Below are positions 9,117 through 35,523 of a DNA stretch of 64,000 nucleotides, in pieces. The stretch's first letter is position 1, and each line of letters starts with the position of its first letter. Below the pieces are notes generated by a model that made no database searches, was not told the DNA's origin, and saw nothing but the letters and a program-made list of their open reading frames with translations. The DNA is from Escherichia coli (GTDB lineage Bacteria > Pseudomonadota > Gammaproteobacteria > Enterobacterales > Enterobacteriaceae). The stretch lies in assembly GCF_030013595.1 (NCBI RefSeq), contig NZ_CP122768.1, one strand, 5' to 3'. Both the position numbers and the translations under genes were made by a program.

Positions 9117-9145
9117 TTTACACGCCGCATCGGGATGTTTATAGT
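9117..9145 (+). promoter_or_regulatory. sigma-70 promoter of serT
   Basis: TTTACA (9117..9122), 17-bp spacer, TATAGT (9140..9145), GC-rich discriminator, about 12 bp before the mature tRNA 5' end. Confidence 0.6.
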
Positions 9146-9157
9146 GCGCGTCATTCC

Positions 9158-9245
9158 GGAAGTGTGGCCGAGCGGTTGAAGGCACCGGTCTTGAAAACCG
9201 GCGACCCGAAAGGGTTCCAGAGTTCGAATCTCTGCGCTTCCGCCA
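9158..9245 (+). tRNA. serT: tRNA-Ser (anticodon UGA)
   Basis: 88-nt sequence GGAAGTGTGGCCGAGCGGTTGAAGGCACCGGTCTTGAAAACCGG...GAATCTCTGCGCTTCCGCCA with long variable arm and anticodon loop CTTGAAA; encoded CCA end. Confidence 0.92.
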
Positions 9246-9252
9246 AATAATC

Positions 9253-9286
9253 AAGGGGTTACCAAATGGTAACCCCTTTGCTTTTT
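9253..9286 (+). terminator. rho-independent terminator after serT
   Basis: Perfect hairpin AAGGGGTTACC-AAAT-GGTAACCCCTT followed by TGCTTTTT. Confidence 0.75.
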
Positions 9287-9292
9287 GGGCTC

Positions 9293-9323
9293 TTGGTATA
9301 AACTTGGTATACCAATTGGTATA
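9293..9323. repeat. three phased TTGGTATA repeats including a perfect 16-bp palindrome TATACCAATTGGTATA
   Basis: TTGGTATA at 9293, 9304 and 9316 (11-12 bp phasing); 9308..9323 is its own reverse complement. Confidence 0.7.
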
Positions 9324-9508
9324 TTTTCTGCCAAAAAATTCCTAAAATCCCCTCCAGCACAAACAATCACTTGCTCATTCATACTTTATCAAGAAAATAT
9401 CCTTGCAAGTTATGTTGTTTCTTTCTGCGTCCCGACAGGGTGTCATGGTTCCCCACTTCTCTCGGGATGGACACTTAACGGACGAGAAATTTTCAGGTGT
9501 CATTCAGA

Positions 9509-9547
9509 CGCGCTTCGGCCCCGGATTGGCGAAGCGCGCTTTTTTTC
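9509..9547 (+). terminator. orphan rho-independent terminator between serT and tfa
   Basis: Stem CGCGCTTCG (9509..9517) / CGAAGCGCG (9530..9538) followed by CTTTTTTTCTC. Confidence 0.5.
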
Positions 9548-9693
9548 TCAGATTATTTCGTTTTGCCTGAGTGTTGAATAACGCCACTACAGTTATATAA
9601 GCTGGAAATCATTCAATACTCGCACTATCGAAAGTTCACCAGCCAACCGCAGCACGTACTGCATACGTCGTGTCTGCGGTTTTTCTTTTTCAC

Positions 9694-10278
9694 TTACATT
9701 GTGTCTGGTTCTTCCGGCCACACAATATCCGGTGCTACTGATGTATCAACACGGTTCAGCAACACCCGATACTTTTTCCAGGCTTCCAGCAACGAGTTTT
9801 CTTCCTCCGTTGCGATCTCCAGATCTACAGCATCCTGAAGTGGCGCAATATGCTCACTGGCTACCTGCATCAGGCTGTTTTTTGTTTCTTCCGCCTCCCG
9901 GATCCGGAACAGTTTTTCTGCTTCTGCATCTTTCACCCAGGCTGTGCCGTTCCACTTCTGAAACTCCCCTTCCGGCGATAACCAGGTAACATTTTCCGGT
10001 AACGGACCGAGTTCAGAAATAAATAACGCGTCCCCTGACGCTACGTCATAAACCGTTTTACCCCGATGGTCTTCAACGAGATGCCACGATGTCTCATCAC
10101 TGTTGAAAACAGCCACGAAGCCTGCCGGAATATCTGGCGTTGCAATATCGGTACTGTTTGCTGGCAGACCTGTATGAGGTGGAATGTATGCATCACCTTC
10201 ACCAATAAATTCATTAGTTCCGGCCAGCAGATTATAAATTTTTATGGTCCGTGCTTGTTCACTCATTCTGAATGCCAT
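9694..10278 (-). CDS. tfa: tail fibre assembly protein Tfa
   Basis: 194-aa ORF, same length as lambda Tfa; overlaps stf stop. Confidence 0.9.
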
Positions 10279-12758
10279 TATGCAAGCCTCACAATATAGT
10301 TAAATGCGATGTTTTTGACGGTGTTTTCCGCGTTACCAGCAGCGTTAACGGTGATGGTGTGTCCATGTGAGCCAATCGCAACAGAGTGCGTATGAGCACC
10401 AATACCGACAGTATGTGCGTGAGCACCTGCAGATGCAGCTGTGCCGCTGACACTATGAGTGTGCGCTCCTGCAGCACTTGTATTCACACTGGCCGCAGAC
10501 ACTACCTTATGTACTGACCCATTTTGTGACCACTGGCTGACTGCTGATGCGCCTGTGACACTATGAGTATGGTTTCCGGCACTTGCGGCTGTACCGCTCA
10601 CACTGTGCGTATGCGCCCCGGTGTTATTCGTGGATTTAGTGCCGTAATCAAACGACGATGTGGTTTTCGTCCCCAAATCCGTACTGGATGCGCTGGCGCT
10701 GTGGGTGTGCGATTTAATGCCGTCCTGTTCCTGAGACAATACGGCCCGACCACTGGCAGGTTTGCCCTTAATCGTCCAGCCACGCATATCAGGGATCACG
10801 CCTGACGGATAAGCGGCTGCAAGTTTCGGGTATGCAGATTTGTCAAAAGTCTGCCCCTGCATCAGGGCATAACCAGACGGAACGGTATCTGATGGCCACG
10901 GGATTGGTGCACCGACTGGGTAGCTTTCTGGTGGAAGATTTTTCGAGGTATAAACTTCTGCCCAGTCTTCCTCAAAACCATAACCGTCTCTTGAAGAACG
11001 GTAGAACAGACCACCATTTCTGTAATGCGCCTTCATCTGCAGGGTCCGGCAACTTCCGACTCCGGTATAGAAGTTAACCAGAATATAGCTGTTGCCTGTC
11101 CGGGTGACATTGTATGCACCAGATTTAGCATTCCACGGAACGCCTCCCTCTGACTCTGCGTGCACACCAGACGATCCAAGAGCAAAAGCAGAGACATCTG
11201 CAGCGGACAGCCTGATGTCTGATTTCAATGCCTTACCATTCACCTTACGACCAGATGGAACCCGGTCATTTGCATTATCATTCACCGCTTTCACCGCCAT
11301 TGGTGTTGCCGCCAGCGATTCACTGTCACTGTCCGTGGCACTGCTGAGCTGTACCACCCCCTTTCTCGTCGTGCTCGCATCCTCTAGCGCCACGGCAGAT
11401 GCAATATCCTCTGCCCGTTTTGCTGCTGTCTCGGCACGCGTTGCTGCAGATTCCGACGTACTTTTGCTCTGAGCTGCCGCTGTCGCACTACCAGCTGCCT
11501 CTGTCGCCTTCGTGGATGCCGTCGTGGCACTGACCTTCGCCTCTGACGCCTGTCTTACCGCCTCATCTTTTGAAGCAGACGCCGATGATGCTGATGACGC
11601 CGCCGAACTGGCGGACGATGCGGCTGCCGTTTCTGAGGCTCCTGCGCGGGTTTCCGACGCTTTCGCATTCGTCTCAGATGTCTTCGCTGCGGAAGCAGAA
11701 CTCGCAGCTGCAGTGGCCTGTTCAGTGGCTTCGCCAGCCTTCGTTGTGGCTGTTGAAGCGGACGATGCAGCGCTTTCTGCCGATTTTCCGGCGGCAGCGG
11801 CACTGGCTACAGCCTCCCCTGCCTTCACTGATGCCTCACGGGCCGATGATGCAGCCGCGGTTTCTGAGCCTGCCGCAGCTGAGGCACTCTGTCCCGCTGC
11901 CGTTTCAGAAGACTTAGCGTTTGTCTCAGACGTCTTTGCCGCCTTCGCGGAATTTCCTGCCGCCGTTGCCGAGGAGGCTGCACTACTGGCACTCGAGGCT
12001 GCGCTCGTTTCTGATGATTTTGCCGCCTCTTTTGAAGCCGACGCATCCCTGGCTGAGGAGGCAGCTTCTGACGCTTTCGTGGTCGCGGTGGATGCAGAGG
12101 TGGCTGCTGATTGTTGTGACGCTGCAGCATTCGTTTCAGACGTTTTCGCGGCACCGGCACTGGTGGCCGCCGCGCTTTTTGAGGACTCTGCAGCGGCAGC
12201 ACTTTTTGAGGCTTCAGTGGCCTTTGTTGATGCCGTTCCTGCGCTGGAAGACGCTGACTGAGCCGACGAAGCGGCCTGTCCGGCTGACGTGCTGGCTGCA
12301 CGTGCTGAATCTGCAGCATCAGTCGCATGGGTTGCCGCCTCACGGGCAGATGTGCTGGCATCACTGGCTGACTTCTTCGCGGCTGCCGTGTTCTGTGCCA
12401 CCACGGACGCGTTACGCGCCACCTCTTCCACCATCAGTTCAAAACGGCGCAGTGCCTCCGGACGGGCATCATCCTCCGTCATGGCACCGAGAAAATCATT
12501 CAGCGTACCGGGTTGAGAATCTTCATACACGGTGATGGTCCCGGCATGCGAAGGCGGAAAACCTTCAACCAGCAGGGTGACACTGTACTGACCGTACTCA
12601 ACGTCCATGCTGTAACGCCCGGCTTCATCCGGATTTTCTGAGGCCAGCGTGTTCACCACCACCGTGGTACTGTTACGTTTTGCTTTCAGCTGGATTGTGC
12701 AGTTCTGTACCGGTTTTCCTGTGCCGTCTTTCAGTACACCTGAAATCTTTACTGCCAT
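10278..12758 (-). CDS. stf: side tail fibre protein Stf
   Basis: Starts [26 protein letters not shown] as lambda Stf; long Ala/Ser-rich shaft; C-terminal ...[31 protein letters not shown]. Confidence 0.88.
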
Positions 12759-12822
12759 ATTCACCCCACAAAAAAGCCCGCCTGAACCGGCGGGCTGTCA
12801 TAACACTGTGTTACCTGGCTAA

Positions 12823-13422
12823 TCAGAATTTATAACCGACACCCACGATGAAACCGTCAGTGCGCCAGTCACCACTGCCGGAGCCTTCATAAGCGACATC
12901 AATGGCCACGGATTCGGTCGGGTTAAACTGCACGCCAGCCCCCCACGCCAGAGACGTGTTGCTGTGGCGACCGTCATCACTTCCGGTCAGCACGTCGTGC
13001 GTTTTCCCCTTGTTATCAGTTACGCGGAGATAATCCCCGGAAAAAGTCGACACACGGCTGTAAGCCACACCCGCCATCGCATACGCGCTTAACCATTCAT
13101 TCACGCGCACAGACGGCCCCGCCATCACGCTGAACCAGCGGTTACGCACGGAATCTTCATGCCAGCGGGTATCGCTGTAACGGGTCAGCTGGCGATTCTT
13201 GTCTCCTGCATAGCTGAATGACGTCACCAGCCCCAGTGTGTCCGTAAACTCATAACGGTATTTCACGTTAATCCCGTTCAGATCATCGCTGCCGGGAACG
13301 TTCGTCGAGGTATAAAGATAGCCCGCGCTCAGCGTGGACTGATGTTCAGACGCCCATGCAGGCGCACAGGATGCGGCCAGACAAATGGCTGCGGACAAAA
13401 TGGCGGCATAAAGTTTACGCAT
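12823..13422 (-). CDS. lom: outer membrane protein Lom (Ail/PagC family)
   Basis: 199-aa ORF MRKLYAAILSAAICLAASCAPAWASEHQSTLSAGY..., signal peptide plus beta-barrel pattern, lambda Lom position. Confidence 0.88.
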   Translation of the reverse strand: MRKLYAAILSAAICLAASCAPAWASEHQSTLSAGYLYTSTNVPGSDDLNGINVKYRYEFTDTLGLVTSFSYAGDKNRQLTRYSDTRWHEDSVRNRWFSVMAGPSVRVNEWLSAYAMAGVAYSRVSTFSGDYLRVTDNKGKTHDVLTGSDDGRHSNTSLAWGAGVQFNPTESVAIDVAYEGSGSGDWRTDGFIVGVGYKF

Positions 13423-13491: not shown

Positions 13492-16400
13492 TCAACGGAT
13501 ACTGATACCGGAAGCCGCTTTTTTGGTCACTATCACCGTACAGTCTGTGATGTTACCTGCACCCTGATTGCCTTTCTGGAAAATCCTGAACTCCAGGGTG
13601 ACGTTCCCACCACCACTCGGCATATCAATAACCGCGCTGTAACTCCCGGGAACTGCCCCTCTGGTTTCTCTGGATGCGATTAAGACACCGTTTTTGCGAA
13701 CTTCAAAACCATAACCCGTGTACCTTGTACCTCCCGGGTTATTACCGCTCCCCGGATTGTCATACGCCACACCGTTAAAAATAATGGGCGGAATAATGAT
13801 TTGACGGTCAAAGTTATGATCATCGCTGATGGTGACGGTAACCGTCCCGTCGGGTGTTTCCGTGTTCCCCCACGTACCAGCCCTTTTCGGGAATGGTCTG
13901 GATACCGCTTTAACGAAGTCCCCCCTGACCTGGTTCGCCTCCAGCATGCCCTTAATCGTACAGTTCTCATTTACCGTGACGTTGTTGAGCGTTCCGGCGT
14001 TCGCGTTCACGTTACCGCTGATATCCGCATTTCTCGCCGTCAGCCGACCGTCAGGTGTCAGGGAAAATGCCGGTGGATATCCACCGCTGGTAATGGTGGG
14101 AGCCGTCAGATATTTCAGGAACACTTCATTCATGAATATCTGATCACCCTGACCAACAAACATCGGCTTTGTGTTGCCATTTGCAGGATTAATCATCGCA
14201 ATCCTGTCTGCCGCCAGCAGCACCTGACTCTGCATGCCGTCGGGGGTGTTCTCAATACCGGCACCGATACCCGCGATATAAAGGCGTCCGTCCTGCATCT
14301 GCTGCAGCTTCACAGCCCACATGCTGTTCAGGTTATTACTTGTATCAACCTGAACCTGCTGTATCTGCTGAATTGCTGCACTCTGGTCTTCCAGTTTCTT
14401 ATTGACGGTCTGTGTGATTTCATTGCTGACATCCGTAATGGACGTCCTGATTTCAGCCAGGTCAGGCGCAAGCTGACCGTTATCAATCTGCGTCCACAGC
14501 TCCTGAGCCAGATGGGTTTTCCCTATCTCGCCTTTGAAAAAATCCAGGTAACCTTCCGCATCATCGCTCGCCCGACCGACGGCCTCCACGAATGCCGATT
14601 TGCCAACGGTGTTCACACTGCGGATATAAAAGTAATAATCATGGCCCGGTTTGATATTGATACTGGCGGCTATCCAGTACAGCCCCGTGCCAAGGTAGCG
14701 GGCTGTGGTTTCAACCTGCCTGATATCGGTAATCCGCGTTTCCGAGAACCAGAACTCAAACTGTACCGTCGGATCATAAACCGCAAGATGCGGCGTGGCA
14801 GTTATCTGAAAATAGCCCGGCGTCAGCTCAATCTGTGACGGCGCTGCCGGTGCGGCAATCCGGAACGATACCGATGCCGGATCGCCCTGCTGTCCCCACG
14901 CATTTACCGCCCGGACTGTCAGCCTGTAGTTCCCCAGCGCCAGTTGCCTGAAGCGGTATGTGGTTTCCGCCGTCCGGGCCGTGCTGACCAGCAGCTCACT
15001 GCCGTCATCCGCTGCCACGGTCAGGCGAAGCAGGAAACTCACGCCCTTCACCACCTTCGGCGTGTCCCAGCGCGCCAGCACCTGATATTCCCCGCTGTCT
15101 GCGGTGACTTCGGCGGTCAGGTGCTGCACCGCTGGCGGCGTGACACCATTCACCGTGCCGCTCTGGTCGCCGTCAAAGTGCGCCCCGTTATCCACGATGG
15201 CCTCTTTTTCCGGTACATGCTGCACGGCGGTGATGGCATACGTGCCGTCGTCGTTCTCACGGATACTCACGCAGCGGAACAGGCGCTGGCGCAGCGTCGG
15301 CAGCTTCAGCCCCCACACGCTGTATTCAGCAACGCCGTCAGGAACACGGCTCACTTTCACCTTCACGCCGTCGGTGACGGACTGAACCTCCACGCTGACC
15401 GGATTGCCACTTCCGTCAACCAGGCTTATCAGCGTGGTACCGGAGGATGGCAGAGTGATTTCACGGTCGAGCGTCAGCGTCCGGGTCTGGCTGTTTACCG
15501 CCAGCACGCGCCCGCCGATGCTGATACCCGCATAGTCATCATCGCAGATTTCAATGACATCCCCCGGTACATGGCGAAGCCCTTCCGCACCCACGCTGAA
15601 GTCCACGGTCTGCGTTTCCAGCAGTTCCGTTTTAATCAGCCACAGCCCGGCGCGGTGCGCCTGCCCCCGGCTGGTACAGCCAAAGGCATCCATCTTCGTG
15701 ACGTTACGACCGTAACGGGCAATGGCCTGCGTATCTTCAACAAGCTCTGTCGCCGTCTCCCAGCCGTTGTTCGGGTCAATCCAGTTCACCTCAACGGCAT
15801 TATGGCGGTCCTTCAGGGCGCTGAAGCTGTAGCGGAACGGCGCGCCATCATCCGGCATCACCACATTACTGCGGTTATAGGTCCACACCTTATCTGATGG
15901 TCGGTCCTGCACGAACGTCAGCGTCTGCCCGTTCCATACCGGCATACAGCGCATCGCCGAGCAGAAATCACTGAGCACATCCCACGCCTTGCGCTGTGTG
16001 GTCAGGTACGCATTACAGGTGATGCGCGGCTCCGTGTCGCCAAAGCCGTCCGGCACCGACTGGTCGCAGTACTGGCCGATGACATACAGCGCCCATTTAT
16101 CTACATCCGCTGCACCAAGACGTTTCCCCATGCCGTAGCGCGGATGGGTCAGCATATCCCACATACACCAGGCCATGTTGTTGCTGTATGCCGGTTTAAA
16201 CGTTCCGTCCCAGATACCGCTGTATTGCCGCGTCTGCGGGTTATAATTCGACGGCACCTGCAGAATACGCCCGCGCAGATGATAATTACGGCTCACCTGC
16301 TGGCTGCCGAACTGCTCCGAGTCCACCTGCACGCCGACCAGTGCCGTGTTCGGGTAGCACTGTTTCACATCGATGATTTCGGTGTATGACGACCAGAGCG

Positions 16401-16989
16401 TTTTGTTCTGCAGCTGGTCTGTGGTGCTGTCCGGCGTCATCCTGCGCATCCGTATATTGAACGGGCGCGGCGGCAGGTTACCCACCACCACCGAGGCCAG
16501 ATACTGCGAGGTGGTTTTGCCCTTAATGGTGATGTCTTTTTCCGTCACCCAGCCACCGTTACGCTGTATCTGAACCAGCAGGCGGACTTCCGACGGATTC
16601 CTGTCCCCCTTTGAGGTGGTTTCCACCAGTGCCTGCACGCCGAAGGTAAAACGCAGTCGGTCAATGTTTGCCGACGTGATGGTCCGGGTGATCGGCGTGT
16701 CGTATTTCACTTCCGTACCCAGCACCGTCTCGGAGCCGGAGGATTCAAATCCCTCCGGCGGTGTCTGCTCCTGCTCACCGGCCCGGAACACCACCGTGAC
16801 GCCGGAGATGTTGGTATTCCCCTCACTGTCCAGCACTGGCGTACTGTTCAGCAGCACGCTTTTTAATCCATCCACCGGACCTTCAACCGGCCCTTCGCTG
16901 ATGGCATCAATCACACTCAGCAGCTGCGTGGATTTCAGGTTGTCCTTCGCTTCGCGCGGGGTATGCCCCTTACTGCTGCCTTTACCCAT
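13492..16989 (-). CDS. J: tail tip host-specificity protein J
   Basis: 1165-aa ORF starting [25 protein letters not shown] as lambda J. Confidence 0.92.
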
Positions 16990-19364: not shown

Positions 19365-21922
19365 CGTCCACCTCCGGAGAACAGTCCACCATCACGCATC
19401 TGTGTCTGAATTTCATCACGGGCACCCTTGCGGGCCATGTCATACACCGCCTTCAGAGCAGCCGGACCTATCTGCCCGTTCGTGCCGTCGTTGTTAATCA
19501 CCACATGGTTATTCTGCTCAAACGTCCCGGACGCCTGCGACCGGCTGTCAGCCAGACTGCCCGGTGTACCGACATAACCACCGGTGGCATAGCCGCGCAT
19601 CAGCCGGTAGAGATTCCCCACGCCAATCCGGCTGGTTGCCTCCTTTGTGAAGACAAATTCACCACGGTGAACAATCCCCGCTGGCTCATATTTGCCGCCG
19701 GTTCCCGTAAATCCTCCGGTTGCAAAATGGAATTTCGCCGCAGCGGCCTGAATGGCTGTACCGCCTGACGCGGATGCGCCGCCACCAACAGCCCCGCCAA
19801 TAGCGCTGCCGATACTCCCGACAATCCCCACCATTGCCTGCTTAAGCAGAATTTCTGTCATCATGGACAGCACGGAACGGGTGAAGCTGCGCCAGTTCTG
19901 CTCACTGCCGGTCAGCATCGCCGCCATATTCTGTGCAATACCATCAAAGGTCTGCGTGGCTGCACTTTTTACCTGCGACATACTGTCCGTGGCGCTCTCT
20001 TCCCACTCACTCCAGCCGGACTTCAGGCCTGCCATCCAGCTCCCGCGAAGCTGGTCTTCAGCCGCCCAGGTCTTTTTCTGCTCTGACATGACGTTATTCA
20101 GCGCCAGCGGATTATCGCCATACTGTTCCTTCAGGCGCTGTTCCGTGGCTTCCCGTTCTGCCTGCCGGTCAGTCAGCCCCCGGCTTTTCGCATCAATGGC
20201 GGCCCGTTTTGCCCGTTGCTGCTGTGCGAATTTATCCGCCTGCTGCGCCAGCGCGTTCAGGCGCTCCTGATACGTAACCTTGTCGCCAAGTGCAGCCAGC
20301 TGGAGTTTGTACTCCAGCGTCTCATCTTTATGCGCCAGCAGGGATTTCTCCTGTGCAGACAGCTGGCGACGTTGCGCCGCCTCCTCCAGTACCGCGAACT
20401 GACTCTCCGCCTTCCACAAATCCCGGCGCTGCTGGCTGATTTTCTCATTTGCTCCGGCATGCTTCTCCAGCGTCCGGAGTTCAGCCTGAAGCGTCAGCAG
20501 GGCAGCATGAGCACTGTCTTCCTGACGATCGCCCGCAGACACCTTCACGCCGGACTGTTTCGGCTTTTTCAGCGTCGCTTCATAGTCCTTTTTCGCCGCC
20601 GCCATCAGCGTGTTGTAATCTGCCTGCAGAATTTTCCCGTCCTTCAGTGCCTTGTTCAGTTCTTCCTGACGGGCGGTATATTTCTCCAGCGGCGTCTGCA
20701 GCCGTTCGTAAGCTTTCTGCGCCTCTTCGGTATATTTCAGCCGTGACGCTTCAGTATCGCTCTGCTGCTGCGCATTTTTGTCCTGTTGACTCTGCTGTTC
20801 AGCCTTCTTTCTCGCGGCTTCAAGCGCAAGACGGGCCTTTTCACGATCATCCCAGTAACGCGCCCGCGCTTCATCGTTAACAAAATAATCATCCTTGCGC
20901 AGACTCCAGATGTCGTCCGCTTTCTTAAACGCAGCCTCTGCCTTAATCAGCATCTCCTGAGCGGTATCAGGACGACCAATATCCAGCACCGCATCCCACA
21001 TGGATTTGAATGCCCGCGCTGTCCTGTCTGCCCAGGTCTCCAGCGTACCCATGTTCTCTTTCAGGCGGCGGGTCTGGTCATCAAACCCTTTCGTCGCGGC
21101 CTCGTTCGCCGCCTGCAATGCCCCGGCTTCATCGCCGGAACGCTGCAACTGAGCAACATACGCAATCTGCTCCGCCGTCACGTTATGGAACTGGCGTGCC
21201 ATCGCTGTCAGCCCTGACGTCGGGTCTGTGGTCAGCTTCCCGAAGGCTTCAGCGACCTTGTCCACCTCCACGCCGGATGCAGAGGAGAAACGCGCCACAC
21301 TCTGGCTGATGGATGCAATCTGAGCCTCACCGCTTACTCCCGCCTTAACCAGTGCGCTGAGTGACTCGCTGGTCTGGTTAAACGTCAGCCCTGCCGCCTG
21401 CCCGGCTCTGGACAGGACCAGCATACGATCTGCCGTCAGTCCCGCCTGATTGCCGGAAAGGACCAGCGTTTTGTTGAAATCGGACAAGGTTGAGTTGCCC
21501 TGATACCAGGCATACGCCAGCGCACCGGTCGCCACCGCCAGCGAGGTGGCCCCCACCATCGGCAGGGTGATCGCACCGGCAAGCCCCCTGAACATGGGGA
21601 TCATACCGCCGAAGGAGTCCTTAACCTGACCACCCTGTTGCAGCAGGATCAGCCACGGACTTTGCCCGCCTGCAAGCTGCGTGGCCACGTCGGTGAACTG
21701 TGCAGGCAGCATACGCATGGCGGCTTTATACTGCCCGACGGAAATCCCCGCTTTCTGTGCAGCCAGCGCCTGTCGGCTCAGCGACTGTTCAACGACTGCC
21801 GCTGTTTTTTTCGCATCACTTTCCGTACCGGAAAAATGACGCCTGACTCTGGCCATCTGCTCGTCAAATCTGGCCGCATCCAGACTCAAATCAACGACCA
21901 GATCGCCTACCGGTTCAGCCAT
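19361..21922 (-). CDS. H: tail tape measure protein H
   Basis: 853-aa ORF (same length as lambda H) starting MAEPVGDLVVDLSLDAARFDEQMARVRRHF. Confidence 0.92.
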   Translation of the reverse strand: MAEPVGDLVVDLSLDAARFDEQMARVRRHFSGTESDAKKTAAVVEQSLSRQALAAQKAGISVGQYKAAMRMLPAQFTDVATQLAGGQSPWLILLQQGGQVKDSFGGMIPMFRGLAGAITLPMVGATSLAVATGALAYAWYQGNSTLSDFNKTLVLSGNQAGLTADRMLVLSRAGQAAGLTFNQTSESLSALVKAGVSGEAQIASISQSVARFSSASGVEVDKVAEAFGKLTTDPTSGLTAMARQFHNVTAEQIAYVAQLQRSGDEAGALQAANEAATKGFDDQTRRLKENMGTLETWADRTARAFKSMWDAVLDIGRPDTAQEMLIKAEAAFKKADDIWSLRKDDYFVNDEARARYWDDREKARLALEAARKKAEQQSQQDKNAQQQSDTEASRLKYTEEAQKAYERLQTPLEKYTARQEELNKALKDGKILQADYNTLMAAAKKDYEATLKKPKQSGVKVSAGDRQEDSAHAALLTLQAELRTLEKHAGANEKISQQRRDLWKAESQFAVLEEAAQRRQLSAQEKSLLAHKDETLEYKLQLAALGDKVTYQERLNALAQQADKFAQQQRAKRAAIDAKSRGLTDRQAEREATEQRLKEQYGDNPLALNNVMSEQKKTWAAEDQLRGSWMAGLKSGWSEWEESATDSMSQVKSAATQTFDGIAQNMAAMLTGSEQNWRSFTRSVLSMMTEILLKQAMVGIVGSIGSAIGGAVGGGASASGGTAIQAAAAKFHFATGGFTGTGGKYEPAGIVHRGEFVFTKEATSRIGVGNLYRLMRGYATGGYVGTPGSLADSRSQASGTFEQNNHVVINNDGTNGQIGPAALKAVYDMARKGARDEIQTQMRDGGLFSGGGR

Positions 21923-22753
21923 ACCGGACTCCTCCTGCGATCCCTTCTGATACTGTCATCAGCATTACGTCATCCTCCGTCATGTCCGCCACATCCGGGG
22001 AAGTAGGGATAACTTCATTCCCGTCCGGGCCAAAGCGGACACCTCCGGCAAGCCCTGCCGCTTTCTGCATCAGCACATCATCTTCAGGCTCTTCGTCAGC
22101 CTCGCGCCGGTTCAGCAGACTGAAATCCAGCGGATGCATATCCGGATCGCTGAAAAACAGGCTGAGCACGGTGTACGTCAGCCCGGAAAAGTGCATATCC
22201 AGCAGAACATCATGAAAATAATGGGTACTGTAAAAGCGGTGCCAGTCGGCATACTCCGTGGATGACATCCCGGCAAGCATGGCACGCCAGTCGGGTCGCC
22301 CCATCTCACGCGCCAGTTTCAGGGCAAAACTCAGCTCACCGTCGAACACTTTCCCGCAGAAACAGGCTCTGCAGGCCCGGCGTCATCTGCCTGTTCAGGT
22401 GCATCATTCACAACAAACTCAGACATACCGGACAGACGCATTACCACATTTTCAGCCTGAGCAATTGCCTCTGTGGGCCAGGTGGTAAGCACTTCCTGCT
22501 CAATTTGTTTAACGGCTTCATTCATGGATGGCATCTTTGTCTTCTGCGGATGGTTATGCCACAGGGACATCGCCACCAGAAAAGCACCGGTTCTGACGAG
22601 ATCTTCCACGCTCACCTGTCGATTGACACTGGAGCCCGCCTGTTCTGCCTGTCGTTTCAGCAGGGCGAGATGCTCAATACGCTGCAGGGCTGACAGTTCA
22701 GAAAGCGTGACGCTCACACCGTTATATTCAAATGATTCGGTTTTCAGGAACAT
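21915..22753 (-). CDS. T: tail assembly chaperone G-T fusion made by programmed -1 frameshift
   Basis: T reading frame (21915..22349) overlaps the 3' end of G in the -1 frame; slippery GGGAAAG lies at the overlap as in lambda. Confidence 0.8.
22331..22753 (-). CDS. G: tail assembly chaperone G
   Basis: 140-aa ORF MFLKTESFEYNGVSVTLSELSALQRIEHLALLKRQAEQ..., lambda gpG. Confidence 0.9.
   Translation of the reverse strand: MFLKTESFEYNGVSVTLSELSALQRIEHLALLKRQAEQAGSSVNRQVSVEDLVRTGAFLVAMSLWHNHPQKTKMPSMNEAVKQIEQEVLTTWPTEAIAQAENVVMRLSGMSEFVVNDAPEQADDAGPAEPVSAGKCSTVS
22349..22355 (-). other. slippery heptamer G GGA AAG for the G/G-T frameshift
   Basis: Plus strand CTTTCCC at 22349..22355; zero-frame codons GGA AAG are in the G frame, and the -1 frame continues into T. 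Confidence 0.75.
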
Positions 22754-22768
22754 CGCTGACTCTCCGGA

Positions 22769-23509
22769 TTAACTGGCGGTGACGGTGATTTCTGCAACCG
22801 CAGCAAGTTCACCATTACCGGATACAACCGGAATGTTGACCTTGCCTGCAGCAACGCCGTTCACGGTGATGGTCATACCGCTGACCGACACGGTGGCTTT
22901 TGTTTTATCCGCAGACACCGCACGAAAGCTCTTGTCGGTTACGCCCTCCGGCTGGAAGGCCACGGTCAGCGTGGTGCTCTGCCCTTTCACCACCGAGGTG
23001 CTGGCAGGCGTCACGGTCATGCCGGTTGCCGCTGTTACCGTGCTGCGATCTTCTGCCATCGACGGACGTCCCACATTGGTGACTTTCACCGTGCGGGTGA
23101 TCACTTCCTTCGCCGTCACCGCCTTACCGATACTGCTGACCCAGCCACGGAACACATCGACCGTGCCGTTCGGGAAGCGGATTTTATAGGCACGGGTATC
23201 GCCTTCATTAAACCACGCCAGCAGCGCCTGCTGCCCCTGCTCTCCGGGCATCCACGCCAGCGTGAAGCTGGTATCTCCGGCAGATTTCTGCCCCTGCCCG
23301 GTCGCAGTCCAGTCTGCATCTTCATCATCGAGATAGCTGTCGTCATAGGACTCAGCGGTCAGTTCGCCGGGCGTCAGGTCTTTAACTTTTGCCAGACGCG
23401 ACCAGTCAACGTCTGAAAGCGGATTCGCATAAGGGTCACCGCTCCCCTTATAAACCCACAGGGTGGTCCCGGCACCTTTCACCGGCATTACAGGATTTGG
23501 TACAGGCAT
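22769..23509 (-). CDS. V: major tail protein V
   Basis: 246-aa ORF from [22 protein letters not shown] (internal Met of track ORF), lambda gpV with C-terminal Ig-like domain. Confidence 0.9.
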
Positions 23510-23516
23510 AGCGTCC

Positions 23517-23912
23517 TCACATTTCATAGGTAATGACATAAGTCAGATCGGCTGAACTCCACAGGCCCGCATCATCGTCGCGCCGGTAGTCATAGCCGCT
23601 GGCCACCATACTGGTGATCAAATCTGACAGTGCCGGGATATCGCTCATCACCGGATAAATCCGGGACTCCATCCACGCATCCAGCTCTGAATCCGGCACC
23701 TGAGCAGGCAGGAAAACTTCGATATGCAGCTCCGCCTGCCAGGTATCGCTGTCCAGCTCTTCGCCCGTGTATTCAGCGCCGGTGAGATAAACGGCAACTG
23801 CCGGAAAATCCGCCTCATCAAAAACAGCGGGGCGACCATCAAAAAACGTCGCCCCGGTGTCATGCTTCTCCAGTGCATCCAGTACGGCTGCACGGAGTTC
23901 AGTATGTTTCAT
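23517..23912 (-). CDS. U: tail terminator protein U
   Basis: 131-aa [33 protein letters not shown]..., lambda gpU. Confidence 0.9.
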
Positions 23913-24487
23913 CGCTTTATTACCATCCTCAGTTGATGCTGCAGCGCATAGCCCAGCTCTTTCGGAAGACGTTCACGCCGTATCCGCTCAATATTTTGTT
24001 TAAACGCCGTGGTCAGCGGCACCGCCATCGGGATTTTCACCACATCAATGGGGTAACGGTTTTTCCCGGCCACACGCTGCATGACATGCCACCGGCCATT
24101 TTTCAGTTGCTGAATAAACGCGCCGGGAATACGACGGTTACCCACCACAAGCACGCTGCCGCCACCTTTCAGGGATGAACGCTGCCCCTTTTTACGACGC
24201 CTGCGGCGCGAAAGGACAACCCGCGCATTACCCAGCTTGATTACGGGCAAATCCCCCCGGTTAACCTTGATTCTGGCCTGCGGATTTTTGACCGTGGCCC
24301 TTTTCAGCCTGGCCCTTTCCTTTACCAGTTTCCGGCGTACCTTTGTCTCACGGGCAACCTGTGACGCCGACTGCGATATCGCGGATGAAGCAACGCGGTT
24401 AATGGCCATTGCGGCGGCACCGGGCACCGCCGTTCTGCTGATACGGCTGAGGTTTTCAACGGCCTGCTCAAGACCTTTTATGGCCAT
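23909..24487 (-). CDS. Z: tail completion protein Z
   Basis: 192-aa ORF MAIKGLEQAVENLSRISRTAVPGAAAMAINR..., lambda gpZ. Confidence 0.9.
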   Translation of the reverse strand: MAIKGLEQAVENLSRISRTAVPGAAAMAINRVASSAISQSASQVARETKVRRKLVKERARLKRATVKNPQARIKVNRGDLPVIKLGNARVVLSRRRRRKKGQRSSLKGGGSVLVVGNRRIPGAFIQQLKNGRWHVMQRVAGKNRYPIDVVKIPMAVPLTTAFKQNIERIRRERLPKELGYALQHQLRMVIKR

Positions 24488-24498
24488 ACATCCCCCTT

Positions 24499-24852
24499 TC
24501 AGCGGCGACGGTTAACGGCAGGCGGTACGCCCCGCCCAAGCCAGAGATGACAGCTTCCGCCATCATCCGGCGAAATCCGGTCCACCCAGAAGTTTTCCTC
24601 GCCGATGGTCAGTGTGTCTCCACGCCGCAGCTGCCGCACATCATCAGTCCGGACAAACAGGGACGGGCTGGAGCCTTCAACGCGCACCCCCTGTCCGGCA
24701 TAGCTGATATTTTCAGGGTCATCAAAAACACCACGTATCACAGCACCGGACAGCTCACCGGATGTCATGGTGGCTGACGTTCCCATGTACCCGCGTATCG
24801 TTTCATCGGCGCGGGCAATGGCAGCATCGAACAGGTTATCGGAATCAGCCAC
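24499..24852 (-). CDS. FII: head-tail connector protein FII
   Basis: 117-aa ORF MADSDNLFDAAIARADETIRGYMGTSATM..., lambda gpFII. Confidence 0.9.
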   Translation of the reverse strand: MADSDNLFDAAIARADETIRGYMGTSATMTSGELSGAVIRGVFDDPENISYAGQGVRVEGSSPSLFVRTDDVRQLRRGDTLTIGEENFWVDRISPDDGGSCHLWLGRGVPPAVNRRR

Positions 24853-24863
24853 AGCGCCTCCCG

Positions 24864-25262
24864 TTATTGCATTCTGGCCAGGCCATGTTCTGTCATTTCG
24901 GCTGCCACACCGGCAGAGACACGAAACGCCGTTCCCGGCAGCACAAATGCCACAGGCTCATCCCGCGTGGCGTGAAGTGCATCAGTATGCAGCGTCACCA
25001 GTGCCACGACCGTGACCAGAGCAGCCGTATCAATCACGGTATCCGGCTGCGCTGATACCACCTCATTTTCATGCCCGGTCAGCGCATTTTCCGGGCTGAC
25101 AGATGTGTCCTGACCGGCAGCGTCATCCGTGTCATCAAGCTCCTCTTCCAGCTCTGCCACACGGAGTGCCAGTTCTTCTTTCGTCCCCGTCAGGCTGACA
25201 TCACGGTTCAGTTGCTCACCCAGCACCTGAAGACGGGCAATCAGTTCATCTTTCGTCATGGA
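24864..25262 (-). CDS. FI: DNA packaging protein FI
   Basis: 132-aa ORF from MTKDELIARLQVLGEQLNRDVSLTGTKEELALRVAELEEEL (internal Met of track ORF), lambda gpFI. Confidence 0.88.
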   Translation of the reverse strand, partial: SMTKDELIARLQVLGEQLNRDVSLTGTKEELALRVAELEEELDDTDDAAGQDTSVSPENALTGHENEVVSAQPDTVIDTAALVTVVALVTLHTDALHATRDEPVAFVLPGTAFRVSAGVAAEMTEHGLARMQ

Positions 25263-25300
25263 CTCCTCCACAGAGAGAAAATGGCCCCGAAGGGCCATGA

Positions 25301-26326
25301 TTACGCCAGTTGTACGGACACGAACGCATCAGGGTCAGCCAGCAGCATCAGCGGTGCTGACTGAATCATGGTGAACTCACGCGCCGGATCGCCGGTGGTC
25401 ACCCAGTTTTTCGGGTAGCGGGCAGAGGCGTTAATACCTTCGCGCTGTGCGTCCGCATCCTGAATGCAGCCATAGGTGCGCAGACCGCGTGCCTGAGTGT
25501 TCCCCAGCACCATCGTGTTGTCCGGAAGGAAGTTCTTTTTGACGTCGTTTTCCACATACTGTCCGGAATACACGACGATCGCCGTATCGCCATACATCCC
25601 CTTATAGGACACCGCTTCGCCCAGGTCTTTTACCGCTGTCTCCAGCTCGGAATTAGAGCCGCGACGGGTATCCAGCTTCTCCCTGACGGCTTTGAAGGAA
25701 CGGAACAGCGCCCAGCCTTTCGGATCAAACACGATGATATTCACCACACCGCTGGCGTTCAGCGCGTAGGCTTCGATATCGTCGGTCGGGTCATACGTGG
25801 ACTTGTCACGCTTGCTCCACTCCGTACCGCCGGACTGCGTGATGTTGTTCGCCACACTGCGGCCCATATCCACTTCAACCGGATCGAAGGCTTCACCGGT
25901 CATGGTGTATTTGCCCTTAAGCACGGCAGAAACTGCCTGCATCTCTTCGACCTGAGCAATGGCCAGCTCTTCGTCTCGCATGTTCTGCAGGATGATGCGA
26001 CGGCGGCGGTAAGCCGGGTCCGCCAGATTCTGTGGATCTTCATCCGGCAGGCGACGCAGGGTCATCTGCGGATTCACCTCATGCTTGGGTTTGACATATC
26101 CCGGTGTAAATTCAGAGGTGGAGCCGCCACGGGAGCGGATAACCTCACCGGAAACAATCGGCGAAACGTACAGCGCCATGTTTACCAGTCCCGGAATTTG
26201 TGAGAGATAGACTTTCTCCGTGGTGAAGGGATAGCTCTCACGGAAAAAGAGACGCAGAAACAGCGGATCAAACTTAAATTTCTTCTCATTTGCCGCCAGC
26301 AGCTGGGCGGTTGTGTACATCGACAT
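25301..26326 (-). CDS. E: major capsid protein E
   Basis: 341-aa ORF from MSMYTTAQLLAANEKKFKFDPLFLRLFFRESYPF, lambda gpE. Confidence 0.93.
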   Translation of the reverse strand: MSMYTTAQLLAANEKKFKFDPLFLRLFFRESYPFTTEKVYLSQIPGLVNMALYVSPIVSGEVIRSRGGSTSEFTPGYVKPKHEVNPQMTLRRLPDEDPQNLADPAYRRRRIILQNMRDEELAIAQVEEMQAVSAVLKGKYTMTGEAFDPVEVDMGRSVANNITQSGGTEWSKRDKSTYDPTDDIEAYALNASGVVNIIVFDPKGWALFRSFKAVREKLDTRRGSNSELETAVKDLGEAVSYKGMYGDTAIVVYSGQYVENDVKKNFLPDNTMVLGNTQARGLRTYGCIQDADAQREGINASARYPKNWVTTGDPAREFTMIQSAPLMLLADPDAFVSVQLA

Positions 26327-26381
26327 AAAAAAATCCCGTAAAAAAAGCCGCACAGGCGGCCTTTAGTGATGAAGGGTAAGG

Positions 26382-26714
26382 TTAAACGATGCTGATTGCC
26401 GTTCCGGCAAACGCGGTCCGTTTTTTCGTCTCGTCGCTGGCAGCCTCCGGCCAGAGCACATCCTCATAACGGAACGTGCCGGACTTGTAGTACGTCAGCG
26501 TGGTGCTGGTCTGGTCAGCATCAACCGCCAGAATGCCAACGGCAGCACCGTCGGTGGTGCCATCCCACGCAACCAGCTTACGGGTGGAGGTATCCAGCAT
26601 CAGCGGGGTCATTGCAGGCGCTTTCGCACTCAATCCGCCGGGCGCGGTTGCCGTATGTGCCGGGTCACTGTTGCCCAGCGGCTGGTAATGGGTAAAGGTT
26701 TCTTTGCTCGTCAT
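26382..26714 (-). CDS. D: head decoration protein D
   Basis: 110-aa ORF from [33 protein letters not shown], lambda gpD. Confidence 0.92.
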
Positions 26715-26723
26715 AAACATCCC

Positions 26724-27329
26724 TTACACTGGTGTGTTCAGCAAATCGTTAACGGCATCAGATGCCGGGTTACCTGCAGCCAGCGGTGCCGGTGCCCCCT
26801 GCATCAGACGATCCAGCGCAGTGTCACTGCGCGCCTGTGCACTCTGTGGTGCAGCTGCCAGAATGCGGCGGGCCGTTTCCACGGTCATACCGGGGGTTTC
26901 GGCCAGCACGCGTGCCTGTTCTTCACGTCCGTGAGCCTCCTCACAGTTGAGGATCCCCATAATGCGACTGTTTTCTGCCGCAACCGCTGCGGTGATCTGC
27001 GCGTTTACGTCCGGCTGCGCCGCGCTGGCGTTCTCGCCCTCCGTCGCTTGCACCACGCCAGTAACGTCAGCCTGCGAAGCAGTGGCTGAAACAGTTGTTG
27101 ATTGAGTCTCTTTGGTCATTCGCCCTCCTGAGAGACGGGATTTACGTGCATCCAGTGCATCACGCATGACGGTGATCGCATCGGTACTGTTAACAAGTTC
27201 ATCAGCCAGTCCGGCATCAATGGCCTCCTGACCGCTGTACACTGCAGCCTCGGTATCCAGCACAGCCTGCACAGACAGGCCGGTATATGCCGACACCTTC
27301 TGTGCAAACATCCGGCGGGTTGCATCCAT
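26724..27329 (-). CDS. Nu3: capsid scaffolding protein Nu3 (in-frame internal start within C)
   Basis: In-frame ATG at 27329..27327 giving MDATRRMFAQKVSAYTGLSVQ..., 606 nt as lambda Nu3. Confidence 0.7.
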   Translation of the reverse strand: MDATRRMFAQKVSAYTGLSVQAVLDTEAAVYSGQEAIDAGLADELVNSTDAITVMRDALDARKSRLSGGRMTKETQSTTVSATASQADVTGVVQATEGENASAAQPDVNAQITAAVAAENSRIMGILNCEEAHGREEQARVLAETPGMTVETARRILAAAPQSAQARSDTALDRLMQGAPAPLAAGNPASDAVNDLLNTPV

Positions 27330-28023
27330 CCGGGACTGCAGTGTTTCCCGGACATCATCCGGTAGATGGCTGTAGGGGTTGCCATCCACCTTATGGCTGC
27401 CGCTGTAAATCAGCGTGATTTCCACGCCCTGTTTCTCCAGCGCAGCGCCGTAATTACTGTGAGCCATCATGACGCCGATGGAGCCTGTCCGGGCGGTCTG
27501 CGTGACCAGACGCCGGGAGGCGGCACTGGCAAGCAGCTGACCTGCGCTGCAGTTCATGTCATTGGCCAGCGCCCATACCGGCTTTATGTCACGCACACGG
27601 GCGATGATGTCAGCGCAGTCAAATGCCCCCGCCACCATTCCGCCTGGCGTATCCATATCGAGCAGAATGCCGTCCACCATCGGGTCACTGGCAGCCTGTT
27701 GCAGACGGGCGATAATGCCGTTGTAACCGGTCATTCCCGAATACGGCTGCAGCGCCCGCGTCCGACTGACCAGCGTACCGGACACCGGCAGCACGGCGAT
27801 GCCGTTCATGACCTGATAACTGCGGGCCTGTCGTGGTCCGTCATCATCACCGGATAACGCCAGCGCCGCGGGTGCCTCTCCGGCAGTCAGGCTGTCGCCG
27901 GATACTGCATCCGTCAGGCGGCTGATCCCAAGCTGGCCTGCAAGCGCACAAAAGAAAACCCGCGCATAGGCGGGTTCAAGCATCAGCGGCTCATTAAAAG
28001 CCATGCTGGCAATATGCGGGAGA

Positions 28024-28043
<20 letters not shown>
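26724..28043 (-). CDS. C: capsid assembly protease C (GTG start)
   Basis: 1320 nt as in lambda C; starts at GTG giving (M)TAELRNLPHIASMAFNEPLMLEPAYARVF; 20-bp overlap with B as in lambda. Confidence 0.88.
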
Positions 28044-31724
<3,681 letters not shown>

Positions 31725-31750
<26 letters not shown>

Positions 31751-32270
31751 TCAGCAACCCCGGTATCAGTTCATCCAGCGCGGCTGCTTTGTTCATGGCT
31801 TTGATGATATCCCGTTTCAGGAAATCAACATGTCGGTTTTCCAGTTCCGGAAAACGCCGCTGCACCGACAGGGGGATCCCGTCGAGAATACTGGCAATTT
31901 CACCTGCGATCCGCGACAGCACGAAAGTACAGAATGCGGTTTCCACCACTTCAGCTGAGTCTCTGGCATTCTTCAGTTCCTGTGCGTCGGCCTGCGCACG
32001 CGTAAGTCGATGGCGTTCGTACTCAATAGTCCCTGGCTGGAGATCTGCCTCGCTGGCCTGGCGCAGTTCTTCAACCTCCCGGCGCAGCTTTTCGTTCTCA
32101 ATTTCAGCATCCCTTTCGGCATACCATTTTATAACGGCGGCAGAGTCATAAAGCACCTCATTACCCTTGCCACCGCCTCGCAGAACGGGCATTCCCTGTT
32201 CCTGCCAGTTCTGAATGGTACGGATACTCGCACCGAAAATGTCAGCCAGCTGCTTTTTGTTGACTTCCAT
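31725..32270 (-). CDS. Nu1: terminase small subunit Nu1
   Basis: 181-aa ORF MEVNKKQLADIFGASIRTIQNWQEQGMPVLRGGGKGNEV..., lambda Nu1 with N-terminal wHTH; 26-bp overlap with A as in lambda. Confidence 0.92.
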
Positions 32271-33810: not shown

Positions 33811-34788
33811 TTAAGCACCTCCTAGTGGATTAAACCTCACCGCATCCTGCAGGTAATCCGGCGCAAGATGGGCATAAATCATCGTTGTCTGAATCTTTGC
33901 GTGCCCCAGAATTTTCTGGAGCGTCAGAATATTGCCGCCGTTCATCATGAAATGACTGGCGAAGGTATGGCGCAGCGCATGAACAGCCTGGCCGTCAGGA
34001 ACATCAGGTGCGACCGTTTTGATGACATCGCGAACCAATGGATAATCCAGCGTCGGAAACACCAGTTTCCCGCCCCGTATTTTGATCTTTTCAAACAGGC
34101 TTTCAGAAATAGGAACGGTACGGTTTTTGCTGTTCTTCGTTTTTGAAAAAGTGATTCGACAATGAAGAACACGGCGCTGCTCTAGTGCCGCTACCTCGCC
34201 CCATCGCGCCCCGGTCGACAGAAGGATTTCGACAGCCAGCCGTTCATCGGGATTTTCAGCCAGTGCATCCAGCAACTGAACACATTCAGACTTACTCAGA
34301 TATCCCATTTCGCGCTCGTTAACCTTCATTCCTTTAAGGCCTTGAACGGGGTTATCGTTAAGAAAATGGCCGGATGAGATGAGTGCGGTAAACATCGCGC
34401 TTAACGCCCCAATCTCTCGATTTATGGTGCTGGGCTGTATCCCCTGCTCTATCCTGGACACACGTAGCTCGGTGAGCATCGTTGTATTAAGTTTATGCAC
34501 GCACGGGTCATCCATTGCCTCACTCAAGCGCAGCAATTTAAGGCGCGTGTTATGCCCTGACTTCATTAGCTGGCCGTGGTATTTCCACCACAAGTCAATA
34601 AGCACTGACAGCGGGCGGCGATCAATGGAGTTTCCTTTCCACTCATTGTTATGCTGTTGCGCCAGCACCCACCGCTCATATAAAACTGCATCCGATTTCG
34701 TTTTAAATTTTTTGCGAATGCGTTTGCCTTTACGCCCCTCAGGACGCATGTCAAGAAGATACCCTCCCGGAATTGATTTTATGCTCAT
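33811..34788 (-). CDS. int: tyrosine integrase, P2 Int family
   Basis: Starts MSIKSIPGGYLLDMRPEGRKGKRIRKKFKTKSDAV (compare P2 Int MAIKKLDDGRYEVDIRPTGRNGKRIRRKF); catalytic ...HALRHTFASH... and ...TTMIYAHL... motifs. Confidence 0.9.
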   Translation of the reverse strand: MSIKSIPGGYLLDMRPEGRKGKRIRKKFKTKSDAVLYERWVLAQQHNNEWKGNSIDRRPLSVLIDLWWKYHGQLMKSGHNTRLKLLRLSEAMDDPCVHKLNTTMLTELRVSRIEQGIQPSTINREIGALSAMFTALISSGHFLNDNPVQGLKGMKVNEREMGYLSKSECVQLLDALAENPDERLAVEILLSTGARWGEVAALEQRRVLHCRITFSKTKNSKNRTVPISESLFEKIKIRGGKLVFPTLDYPLVRDVIKTVAPDVPDGQAVHALRHTFASHFMMNGGNILTLQKILGHAKIQTTMIYAHLAPDYLQDAVRFNPLGGA

Positions 34789-34837
34789 TCGTGAAGCCCC
34801 AGCGTTACAAGACCACCATGCCCCCAGCGTTCCATGA

Positions 34838-35149
34838 TTAGCCGGGCTGTGTGCCAGTCTTGCGGGATTTTTGAGAAGACGATGTGTTTTCTGGCCCATC
34901 AGGGGAGAGAGAAGGACTGATCTGCCCAGCAGCCTCATTTGTTTCGTTACTCATCAACCACGTAGTGTATTTTTTAAATTCCGGGTGCATTGTGATTTTC
35001 AGTAAAACCTCCGTTCCCACACCTCGAATACCAGTCTCGTATTGCTTAACCGTACCAACCGCAATACCTATTGAATCCGCGAACTTTGCCTGACTAAGCC
35101 CCTCAGATTCTCGAATTGCTTTTAGCTTCTTTGATATCTCTATTGACAT
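34838..35149 (-). CDS. C: immunity repressor C (P2 C family HTH)
   Basis: 103-aa ORF MSIEISKKLKAIRESEGLSQAKFADSIGIAVGTVKQYETG...HPEFKKYTTWLMSNE...GQISPSL, resembles P2 C; directly upstream of int on the same strand. Confidence 0.75.
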   Translation of the reverse strand: MSIEISKKLKAIRESEGLSQAKFADSIGIAVGTVKQYETGIRGVGTEVLLKITMHPEFKKYTTWLMSNETNEAAGQISPSLSPDGPENTSSSQKSRKTGTQPG

Positions 35150-35244
35150 GGTGTGCACCTGAATACTATATTGGTTATCAGTTGAGTACCACTTGACACT
35201 ACAAAGAGCCACAAATAGCACCAGATTGAATAGGTTATCACACC
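35150..35244. promoter_or_regulatory. divergent C / cox switch region with direct repeats
   Basis: 95-bp interval between divergent C and cox starts; AT(T/A)GGTTATCA at 35170..35181 and 35230..35241 flank a TTGACA at 35193..35198. Confidence 0.5.
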
Positions 35245-35523
35245 ATGGCAAAAGTCCTTAACACATACGAACAAGCGGATTTTGAGCGTTTGGCGGCGTT
35301 CTACCCATACCGTAATGAACATGGGCTACCGGTACTTGAAGAAAGCCTGGAGGATTATGCGAAACGCACAAATCAAAGCATTCTCGCTGTAAGAAGGCAG
35401 GCTGATAGATCGGTAATTCCCGTTACTCAAGAAGGAAGAAACACAAAACGCAAAGTAAATCTCTTCGCAATTTTCCTGAAAACCATCAGAAACGCAGAGA
35501 AATACGTGCAAATGACAAAATAA
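35245..35523 (+). CDS. cox: Cox/Apl-like excisionase-regulator (putative)
   Basis: 92-aa ORF first in the rightward early operon; central ...YAKRTNQSILAVRRQADRSVIPV... resembles the P2 Cox HTH segment. Confidence 0.55.
   Translation: MAKVLNTYEQADFERLAAFYPYRNEHGLPVLEESLEDYAKRTNQSILAVRRQADRSVIPVTQEGRNTKRKVNLFAIFLKTIRNAEKYVQMTK

Follow-up and report, generated by a model that had tools for sequence, protein, structure and literature searches.

Why should a strong intrinsic terminator stand without a gene of its own between the tRNA gene serT and the tail genes of a lambdoid prophage, on the strand opposite to those tail genes? The question is raised by a short interval of a 64,000-nucleotide stretch of Escherichia coli DNA, hereafter the window. 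We propose, with a probability of roughly 0.6, that this terminator, termed T1, is the inward-facing intrinsic terminator of a temperate-coliphage attachment junction and the functional counterpart of lambda tI. Most likely its sequence family, though not annotated before, is of a textbook kind, which makes T1 an ordinary phage feature and probably not a new small-RNA gene.

The window carries hyaB and hyaA on the minus strand and serT on the plus strand, the latter with a promoter at 9117-9145 (+). The lambdoid tail genes all lie on the minus strand, namely tfa, stf (10278-12764), lom (12823-13422) and J (13492-16989). Over 9246-9700 the window is 100% identical to chromosomes of porcine ETEC and O139 strains, and in a genome identical there RefSeq annotates nothing within the serT-tfa interval. 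The interval and its borders contain the following features:

9158-9245, plus strand: serT, tRNA-Ser(UGA), called by ARAGORN
9253-9278, plus strand: serT-type terminator hairpin, found by the terminator scan, -18.8 kcal/mol
9293-9323, plus strand: three direct repeats TTGGTATA at 9293, 9304 and 9316, spaced by 11-12 bp, seen in the sequence
9334-9489, plus strand: conserved non-coding module, 90-94% identical among family 1 prophages
9470-9501, plus strand: hairpin 1 (GACACUU...AGGUGUC), from RNA folds and sequence comparison
9490-9510, plus strand: near-invariant 21-mer TTTTCAGGTGTCATTCAGACG, from the alignment of relatives
9509-9546, plus strand: intrinsic terminator T1, hairpin 9509-9538 and T7 run 9540-9546
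9574-9601, plus strand: degenerate promoter-like site TTGAAT-16-TATAAG, from the alignment with relatives
9601-9690, plus strand: T2 block, hairpin 9601-9643 followed by a terminator hairpin at 9645-9681 with a U-run to 9690
9694-10278, minus strand: tfa (tail fibre assembly), Pfam Caudo_TAP with E = 1.8e-44, the convergent last gene of the late operon

The lambdoid prophage in the window is a late-region remnant that extends from Nu1 (31725-32270) to tfa, with its terminase large subunit split into 29825-30382 and 30422-31750. Inspection of the window ORFs together with a domain search revealed neither an early region nor an int gene in this remnant, and no second att copy was found within the window. 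Directly next to it is a P2-like prophage, which continues past the end of the window and contains int (33811-34938, minus strand), a repressor-like HTH gene (34838-35251) and gpA (37584-40406).

Several other features of the two prophages were recorded. A full-length Rfam match to IS009 (9737-9935, minus strand, 223 bits, E = 6e-56) lies wholly within the tfa coding sequence, and this RNA family appears to be tail-fibre-assembly coding sequence instead of an independent RNA gene. The stf ORF on the minus strand has a long Ala/Ser/Thr-rich low-complexity region that yields several long overlapping ORFs on both strands, such as 11512-12261 (+), which are almost certainly not genes. In the P2-like late region, a putative tRNA-Leu(CAG) was called by ARAGORN at 52123-52212 (minus strand), overlapping plus-strand ORFs. 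Six tandem copies of a 132-nt unit (54585-55544), with 64-92% identity to the reference copy, sit within an 863-aa P2-like tail-fibre ORF (54190-56781).

T1 reads 5'-CGCGCUUCG G CC CCGGAUU GG CGAAGCGCG C UUUUUUU. Its stem consists of nine base pairs between 9509-9517 and 9530-9538, extended after a one-base bulge by two further pairs between 9519-9520 and 9528-9529, which close a loop of 7 nt; a single C separates the stem from the T7 run. The nine-base-pair GC stem and T7 run given in the earlier note match these boundaries to within 1 nt. A simple consensus terminator scan did not call T1, because it permits no bulge. RNAfold assigned the hairpin a free energy of -18.2 kcal/mol, and when all runs of at least six T residues on both strands of the 64-kb window were ranked by the stability of the upstream hairpin, T1 came third among 69. 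A stability of at least -15 kcal/mol was reached at 4 of these 69 sites, compared to a mean of 0.5 in block shuffles (n = 20). T1 lies on the plus strand, opposite to tfa, 262 nt downstream of the hairpin at 9253-9278, and no gene precedes it in the prophage, so that its earlier description as a strong terminator facing away from the tail genes, with no annotated gene, holds. The judgement that the ORF at 9285-9581 is unlikely to be real was likewise borne out: this frame reads through T1, has no family match, contains 1-nt indels among relatives and lacks codon periodicity.

The T1 core is shared widely among E. coli genomes. The 261-nt segment 9300-9560 is present in 85 of 5426 complete genomes and annotated in none, and a more sensitive search detected the core of about 70 nt (~9490-9560) at 82-86% identity in 943 of the 5426, at 1008 places altogether. 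T1 is thus an unannotated element of some 17% of the complete genomes, and 27 IMG/VR contigs carry it as well. Neither T1 nor the module was found in 72,556 plasmids or in 50,697 deposited phage genomes, the latter matching only 9601-9700 (the T2 block). A scan with a 20-mer of T1 through one genome from each of 100,044 species gave one real match, on a mis-binned MAG contig, and one chance match in a Bacteroidales gene. This near-absence from other species makes T1 an E. coli accessory element.

Comparison of the stem among relatives points to constraint on the hairpin itself. Ten stem variants were collected, all of them foldable (-9 to -21 kcal/mol), with 90.9% of stem cells paired across the set; sliding the 3' partner cuts this pairing to 27-49%. 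Compensatory changes occur at two stem pairs, one from U-A to C-G and the other from C-G to U-A. The support that this pattern lends to selection on the T1 stem is modest but real. With two compensatory pairs and retention in 943 of 5426 genomes, the sequence comparison indicates that T1 is more than a product of chance.

The genomic position of T1 is constant in orientation. At all 13 loci examined it points inward, with the host flank or att site on one side and tail or late genes on the reverse strand on the other. The prophages that carry it are found at ydfJ, potB, ompW, ssrA, uspF and serU, in addition to serT, and the reverse-strand genes facing it are stf/tfa, NleG effectors or gpD of a P2/Mu-like tail module. 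Sakai Sp10 lacks T1 and has a single T2-like block at its uspF end. In the O157 strain MB41-1, the uspF end of Sp10 contains an insert of ~350 bp, flanked by two T2 blocks and holding a serU-type P' arm fragment, T1 and the promoter-like site, which looks like an exchange between prophages via T2 homology.

Two upstream families precede T1 among its relatives. Family 1, which includes the window and prophages at ydfJ, potB, ompW, ssrA and serT, shares the module at 9334-9489. In prophages at four different sites this module begins at the same left boundary. RNAalifold gave no covariation support for a fold of the module, with a covariation term of ~0. Family 2, which includes serU prophages near zinT/yodB (EAEC 042, APEC O1) and the uspF prophages of some O157 strains, has an AT-rich sequence in place of the module; in EAEC 042, T1 occupies 2215107-2215176. 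The 3' arm of hairpin 1 falls within the 21-mer, and family 2 pairs the same CAGGUG(UC) 3' arm not with GACACUU but with a different 5' arm, forming CACCUG-UUUU-CAGGUG. In three IMG/VR contigs (L037-L039) an IS1 end lies ~20 nt upstream of the corresponding CACCTG-TTTT-CAGGTG hairpin, leaving the terminator element intact.

The 21-mer is more conserved than the T1 stem, and more so than a terminator would call for, with one substitution seen (in APEC O1), and distant BLAST alignments begin exactly at it. Homology breaks directly upstream of the 21-mer in family 2 and directly downstream of the U-run in two relatives (L002 and L008). Given these breakpoints on both sides of T1, the hairpin and the 21-mer together form the retained unit.

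What this unit belongs to becomes clearer from the attachment site. The 3' part of serT, from about 9187, equals the segment that is duplicated at the other prophage end and represents the att core. Strain M9 (NZ_CP010196) harbours a complete 41-kb prophage at 854.2-896.1 kb, between yccA and serT, whose module and T1 are 94% identical to the window; there, the fragment GGTCTTGAAAACCGG...CGCCA is repeated beside int and yccA. The native host hairpin GGGGTTAGCTAAATGCTAACCCC of M9 (L045) has been displaced to the int end, beside yccA, and differs from the serT-side hairpin by compensatory stem changes. The earlier note took the hairpin at 9253-9278 for the serT terminator; instead, the comparison indicates that the 3' half of serT and this hairpin were supplied to the window by the phage, with the host version lying at the int end in M9. 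In the circular phage, the hairpin at 9253-9278 would lie inside attP as the first terminator downstream of int.

Homology with prophage-free genomes stops at 9285, and O157 and O111 serT prophages share sequence with the window up to 9327. The TTGGTATA repeats lie in this stretch and carry the overlapping palindromes TGGTATACCA and ACCAATTGGT. In strain M9, three such repeats are located beside serT, and a fourth lies 30 nt after the int stop codon. From their sequence and arrangement, the repeats at 9293-9323 are probably the P'-arm binding sites of arm type for the integrase.

In relatives that retain an integrase gene, T1 lies downstream of int, on the same strand and across attP, as observed in two viral contigs, one tandem prophage and the M9 serT prophage. 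In the two viral contigs (L018 and L032), overlapping AATATTCCAAG arm repeats come after an ORF of 341 aa that has Phage_integrase domains, and are followed by a tRNA-Ser 3' half that corresponds to the core; beyond the core come an AT-rich stretch, another AATATTCCAAG arm site (AAGAATATTCCAAG), T1 and convergent tail-fibre genes. The distance from the int stop codon to T1 is 248 nt in both, and in this serU family T1 is the first terminator predicted after int. In family 2, the sequence upstream of T1 is an arm of attP, whose Int arm-type site lies 22 nt ahead of the element. In a tandem prophage at ompW (L009), the order is xis, int, three TTTTGCAGA repeats, an ompW fragment, a further TTTTGCAGA, the family 1 module and T1. 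In M9, int is directed at att, and its strand leads into T1 after circularisation. Integration parts T1 from int and leaves it at the tail end, as seen in the window and the 13 examined relatives. Co-orientation with int is expected for nearly any inward-facing element of a lambdoid prophage, and the synteny is thus consistent with, not uniquely diagnostic of, an int-side role.

These arrangements suggest how T1 might function in the phage cycle. In the circular or vegetative phage, integrase-side transcription would proceed through int, across attP and the P' arm, and end at T1; in family 1 phages, the module at 9334-9489 would then form the distal 3' UTR of this transcript. In a serT-type phage the int transcript would reach the hairpin at 9253-9278 before T1, so that the phage-borne serT terminator would be met before T1 and T2 after it, all of them ahead of the convergent tail-fibre operon. 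In such a phage T1 is the second terminator, about 270 nt beyond the first, in a row of three (9253, 9509 and 9645), and not "the" tI. Upon integration the unit would be cut at the att core, int going to one prophage end and T1 to the tail-gene end, and in the lysogen T1 would serve only as a backstop against read-through from the neighbouring host DNA, which in the window contains the strongly expressed serT. T1 looks orphaned because integration splits the phage transcription unit and the remnant has no int. In the window it is a relic, and at most a backstop for serT read-through. Termination in vivo, an effect on int expression and any lambda-like retroregulation by T1 would be inferences from this arrangement.

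The neighbouring T2 block abuts the tfa stop codon and has a fold z-score of -3.7. Of the 5426 E. coli genomes 3062 carry it, compared to 943 for T1, and so do the free phages HK97, HK633, mEp460, phi80 and Stx phages, with two copies in lambda. In HK633 the order is int, attP and T2 facing stf, and in mEp460 it is int, a promoter, a dinI-like gene and T2 facing stf. Between T1 and T2, relatives have a promoter-like sequence TTGAAT-18-TAAAAT, where the window bears an 11-nt deletion; in those relatives this site would give an RNA of about 95 nt. T2 may be either a separate small transcription unit or just the terminator that a leftward operon usually has.

Among the alternatives, we regard as unlikely the reading that T1 is the 3' end of an Hfq-type sRNA, transcribed from the P' arm or the module by way of a weak or unconventional promoter, or released by processing of an int-side 3' UTR. 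The layout does resemble such an RNA, since hairpin 1 leads through the single-stranded linker AUUCAGA to a GC-rich terminator with U7. The two families vary upstream but hardly at all in the 21-mer, each of them pairs its own 5' arm with the common CAGGUG(UC) 3' arm, and a conserved 3' end combined with a variable 5' end is also known from AgvB/AsxR (PMC4104026). However, a promoter scan limited to sigma-70-like sites found none on the plus strand over 9146-10271, and by-eye candidates in the P' arm and the module yielded none with acceptable hexamers and spacing. No promoter is common to both upstream families, and in family 2 the sequence upstream is the attP arm, with its Int arm-type site close to the element. 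A search of 9280-9700 against Rfam 15 with E up to 10 returned noise only, the best match over T1 being ncS54 at 11.6 bits (gathering threshold 43, E = 8.8), and RNAalifold revealed no covariation outside the terminator.

Published prophage sRNAs were also compared with T1. Identity with PasB was rejected, PasB being mapped to the gpI-gpJ gap in EPEC E2348/69, and so was identity with AgvB/AsxR, which lie at the PR' moron site. The T1 sequence has no literal match in the searchable literature, and the Hfq-CRAC table of PMC4104026 is uninformative for T1 because Sakai Sp10 lacks it. The earlier suggestion that the interval may encode a small RNA thus found neither a plus-strand promoter, nor an Rfam match, nor the identity of a published prophage sRNA, and an sRNA at T1 is unsupported.

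It is similarly doubtful that T1 is unrelated to int and acts purely as an insulator of the late operon against antisense transcription from serT, ssrA, potB, uspF or yodB. In the window, the tRNA gene ahead of T1 is indeed highly expressed, and T1 belongs to a tandem series of three plus-strand terminators (9253, 9509 and 9645); in several relatives a host gene upstream has the same orientation (ssrA, potB, uspF, zinT/yodB). Yet the adjoining host gene at ompW and ydfJ has the opposite orientation, and T1 travels with the phage, its place with respect to attP being the same at every host site. The roles of insulator and int-side terminator are compatible, as one terminator would do both.

A more specific possibility, which we consider quite improbable, is that the hairpin, the 21-mer and T1 form the Hfq-binding 3' end of an RNA made only from the circular phage genome. 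Its promoter would be on the int side and parted from T1 in the prophage. If true, such an RNA, derived from the integrase 3' UTR and made by the excised phage only, would report the excision or infection state to the host or the phage.

Very unlikely is the reading that a cargo (moron) gene once stood between attP and the tail genes and was lost, leaving 9334-9546 as its decayed 3' end and terminator. It would fit mEp460, where a promoter and a dinI-like gene separate int from T2, and the DinI-like pseudogene fragment that lies about 110 bp upstream of the module in L002. On the other hand, tblastn with mEp460 DinI found no match in 9200-9700, no frame has a Pfam or PHROGs match, and the left boundary of the module is the same in prophages at four different sites. 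Finally, the idea in the earlier note that the interval may encode a short peptide is close to excluded: three open frames do exist (9371-9478, 35 aa; 9403-9570, 55 aa; and 9375-9503 on the minus strand, 42 aa), but widespread variants contain 1-nt indels, variable sites are spread 17/16/15 over the codon positions, there is no family match, two frames use TTG starts and one passes through T1, so that no conserved short ORF is left.

A transcription unit split at att, as proposed for T1, would explain a recurrent puzzle, that is, strong terminators without genes at prophage ends. It also counsels caution against calling sRNA genes from orphan terminators near such ends. Arm-type repeats followed by inward-facing terminators may serve as markers of att junctions, helping to delimit prophages and to reconstruct attP.

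Comparison with known systems places T1 nearest to the phage terminators. AgvB/AsxR and PasA-D resemble T1 in being short, non-coding and prophage-borne, with a Rho-independent terminator and a conserved 3' part joined to a variable 5' part; they differ in genomic position, and T1 has no sequence or Rfam match to them and no promoter. The 3' ends of Hfq-binding sRNAs share with T1 the same layout of hairpin, A/U-rich linker, terminator and U-tail of at least 6. T2 has the same orientation as T1 and the same presumed role of ending int-side or b-region transcription where the late operon converges, and in HK633 and Sakai Sp10 it comes directly after the attP arm, as T1 does in family 2. The two differ in sequence, and T2 is far more widespread and is found in sequenced free phages.

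Sib acts through read-through RNA, which lengthens the tI stem so that an RNase III site arises. Lambda sib retroregulates int (PMC5300877). In a control fold, the lambda tI stem gains 6 pairs from its U-run. The read-through fold of the window gains only unstable outer pairs, which are absent from the centroid, and shows no sib-like long duplex. One possible covarying long-range pair was seen at T1 (ACGAGA/UUUCGU versus ACGGGA/UUCCGU), a single event, which is insufficient for a sib-like duplex. Because read-through in the window gains just these unstable pairs, the role that we propose for T1 by analogy is tI-like, and no claim of sib-type retroregulation is made.

With lambda tI itself the correspondence is one of arrangement. 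The lambda order is int (28882-27812), core (27724-27738), P' sites and then tI, whose hairpin TTAGCGCAAG...CTTGCGCTAA-T6 lies ~187 nt past the core and ~275 nt after int. blastn of 9246-9700 against lambda 20500-29500 matched the T2 block only, with no sequence homology between tI and T1. Both are intrinsic terminators on the int strand, a few hundred nucleotides beyond int and just past the P' arm sites; both are parted from int by integration and come to lie at the tail or b-region end of the prophage; and both have a long loop and nearly the same hairpin stability (-17.9 kcal/mol for tI and -18.2 kcal/mol for T1). They differ also in other respects: T1 is joined to a 21-mer that is more conserved than its stem, in serT phages it is preceded by the phage-borne serT terminator, and, unlike tI, it is common to phages with several different integrases and att sites.
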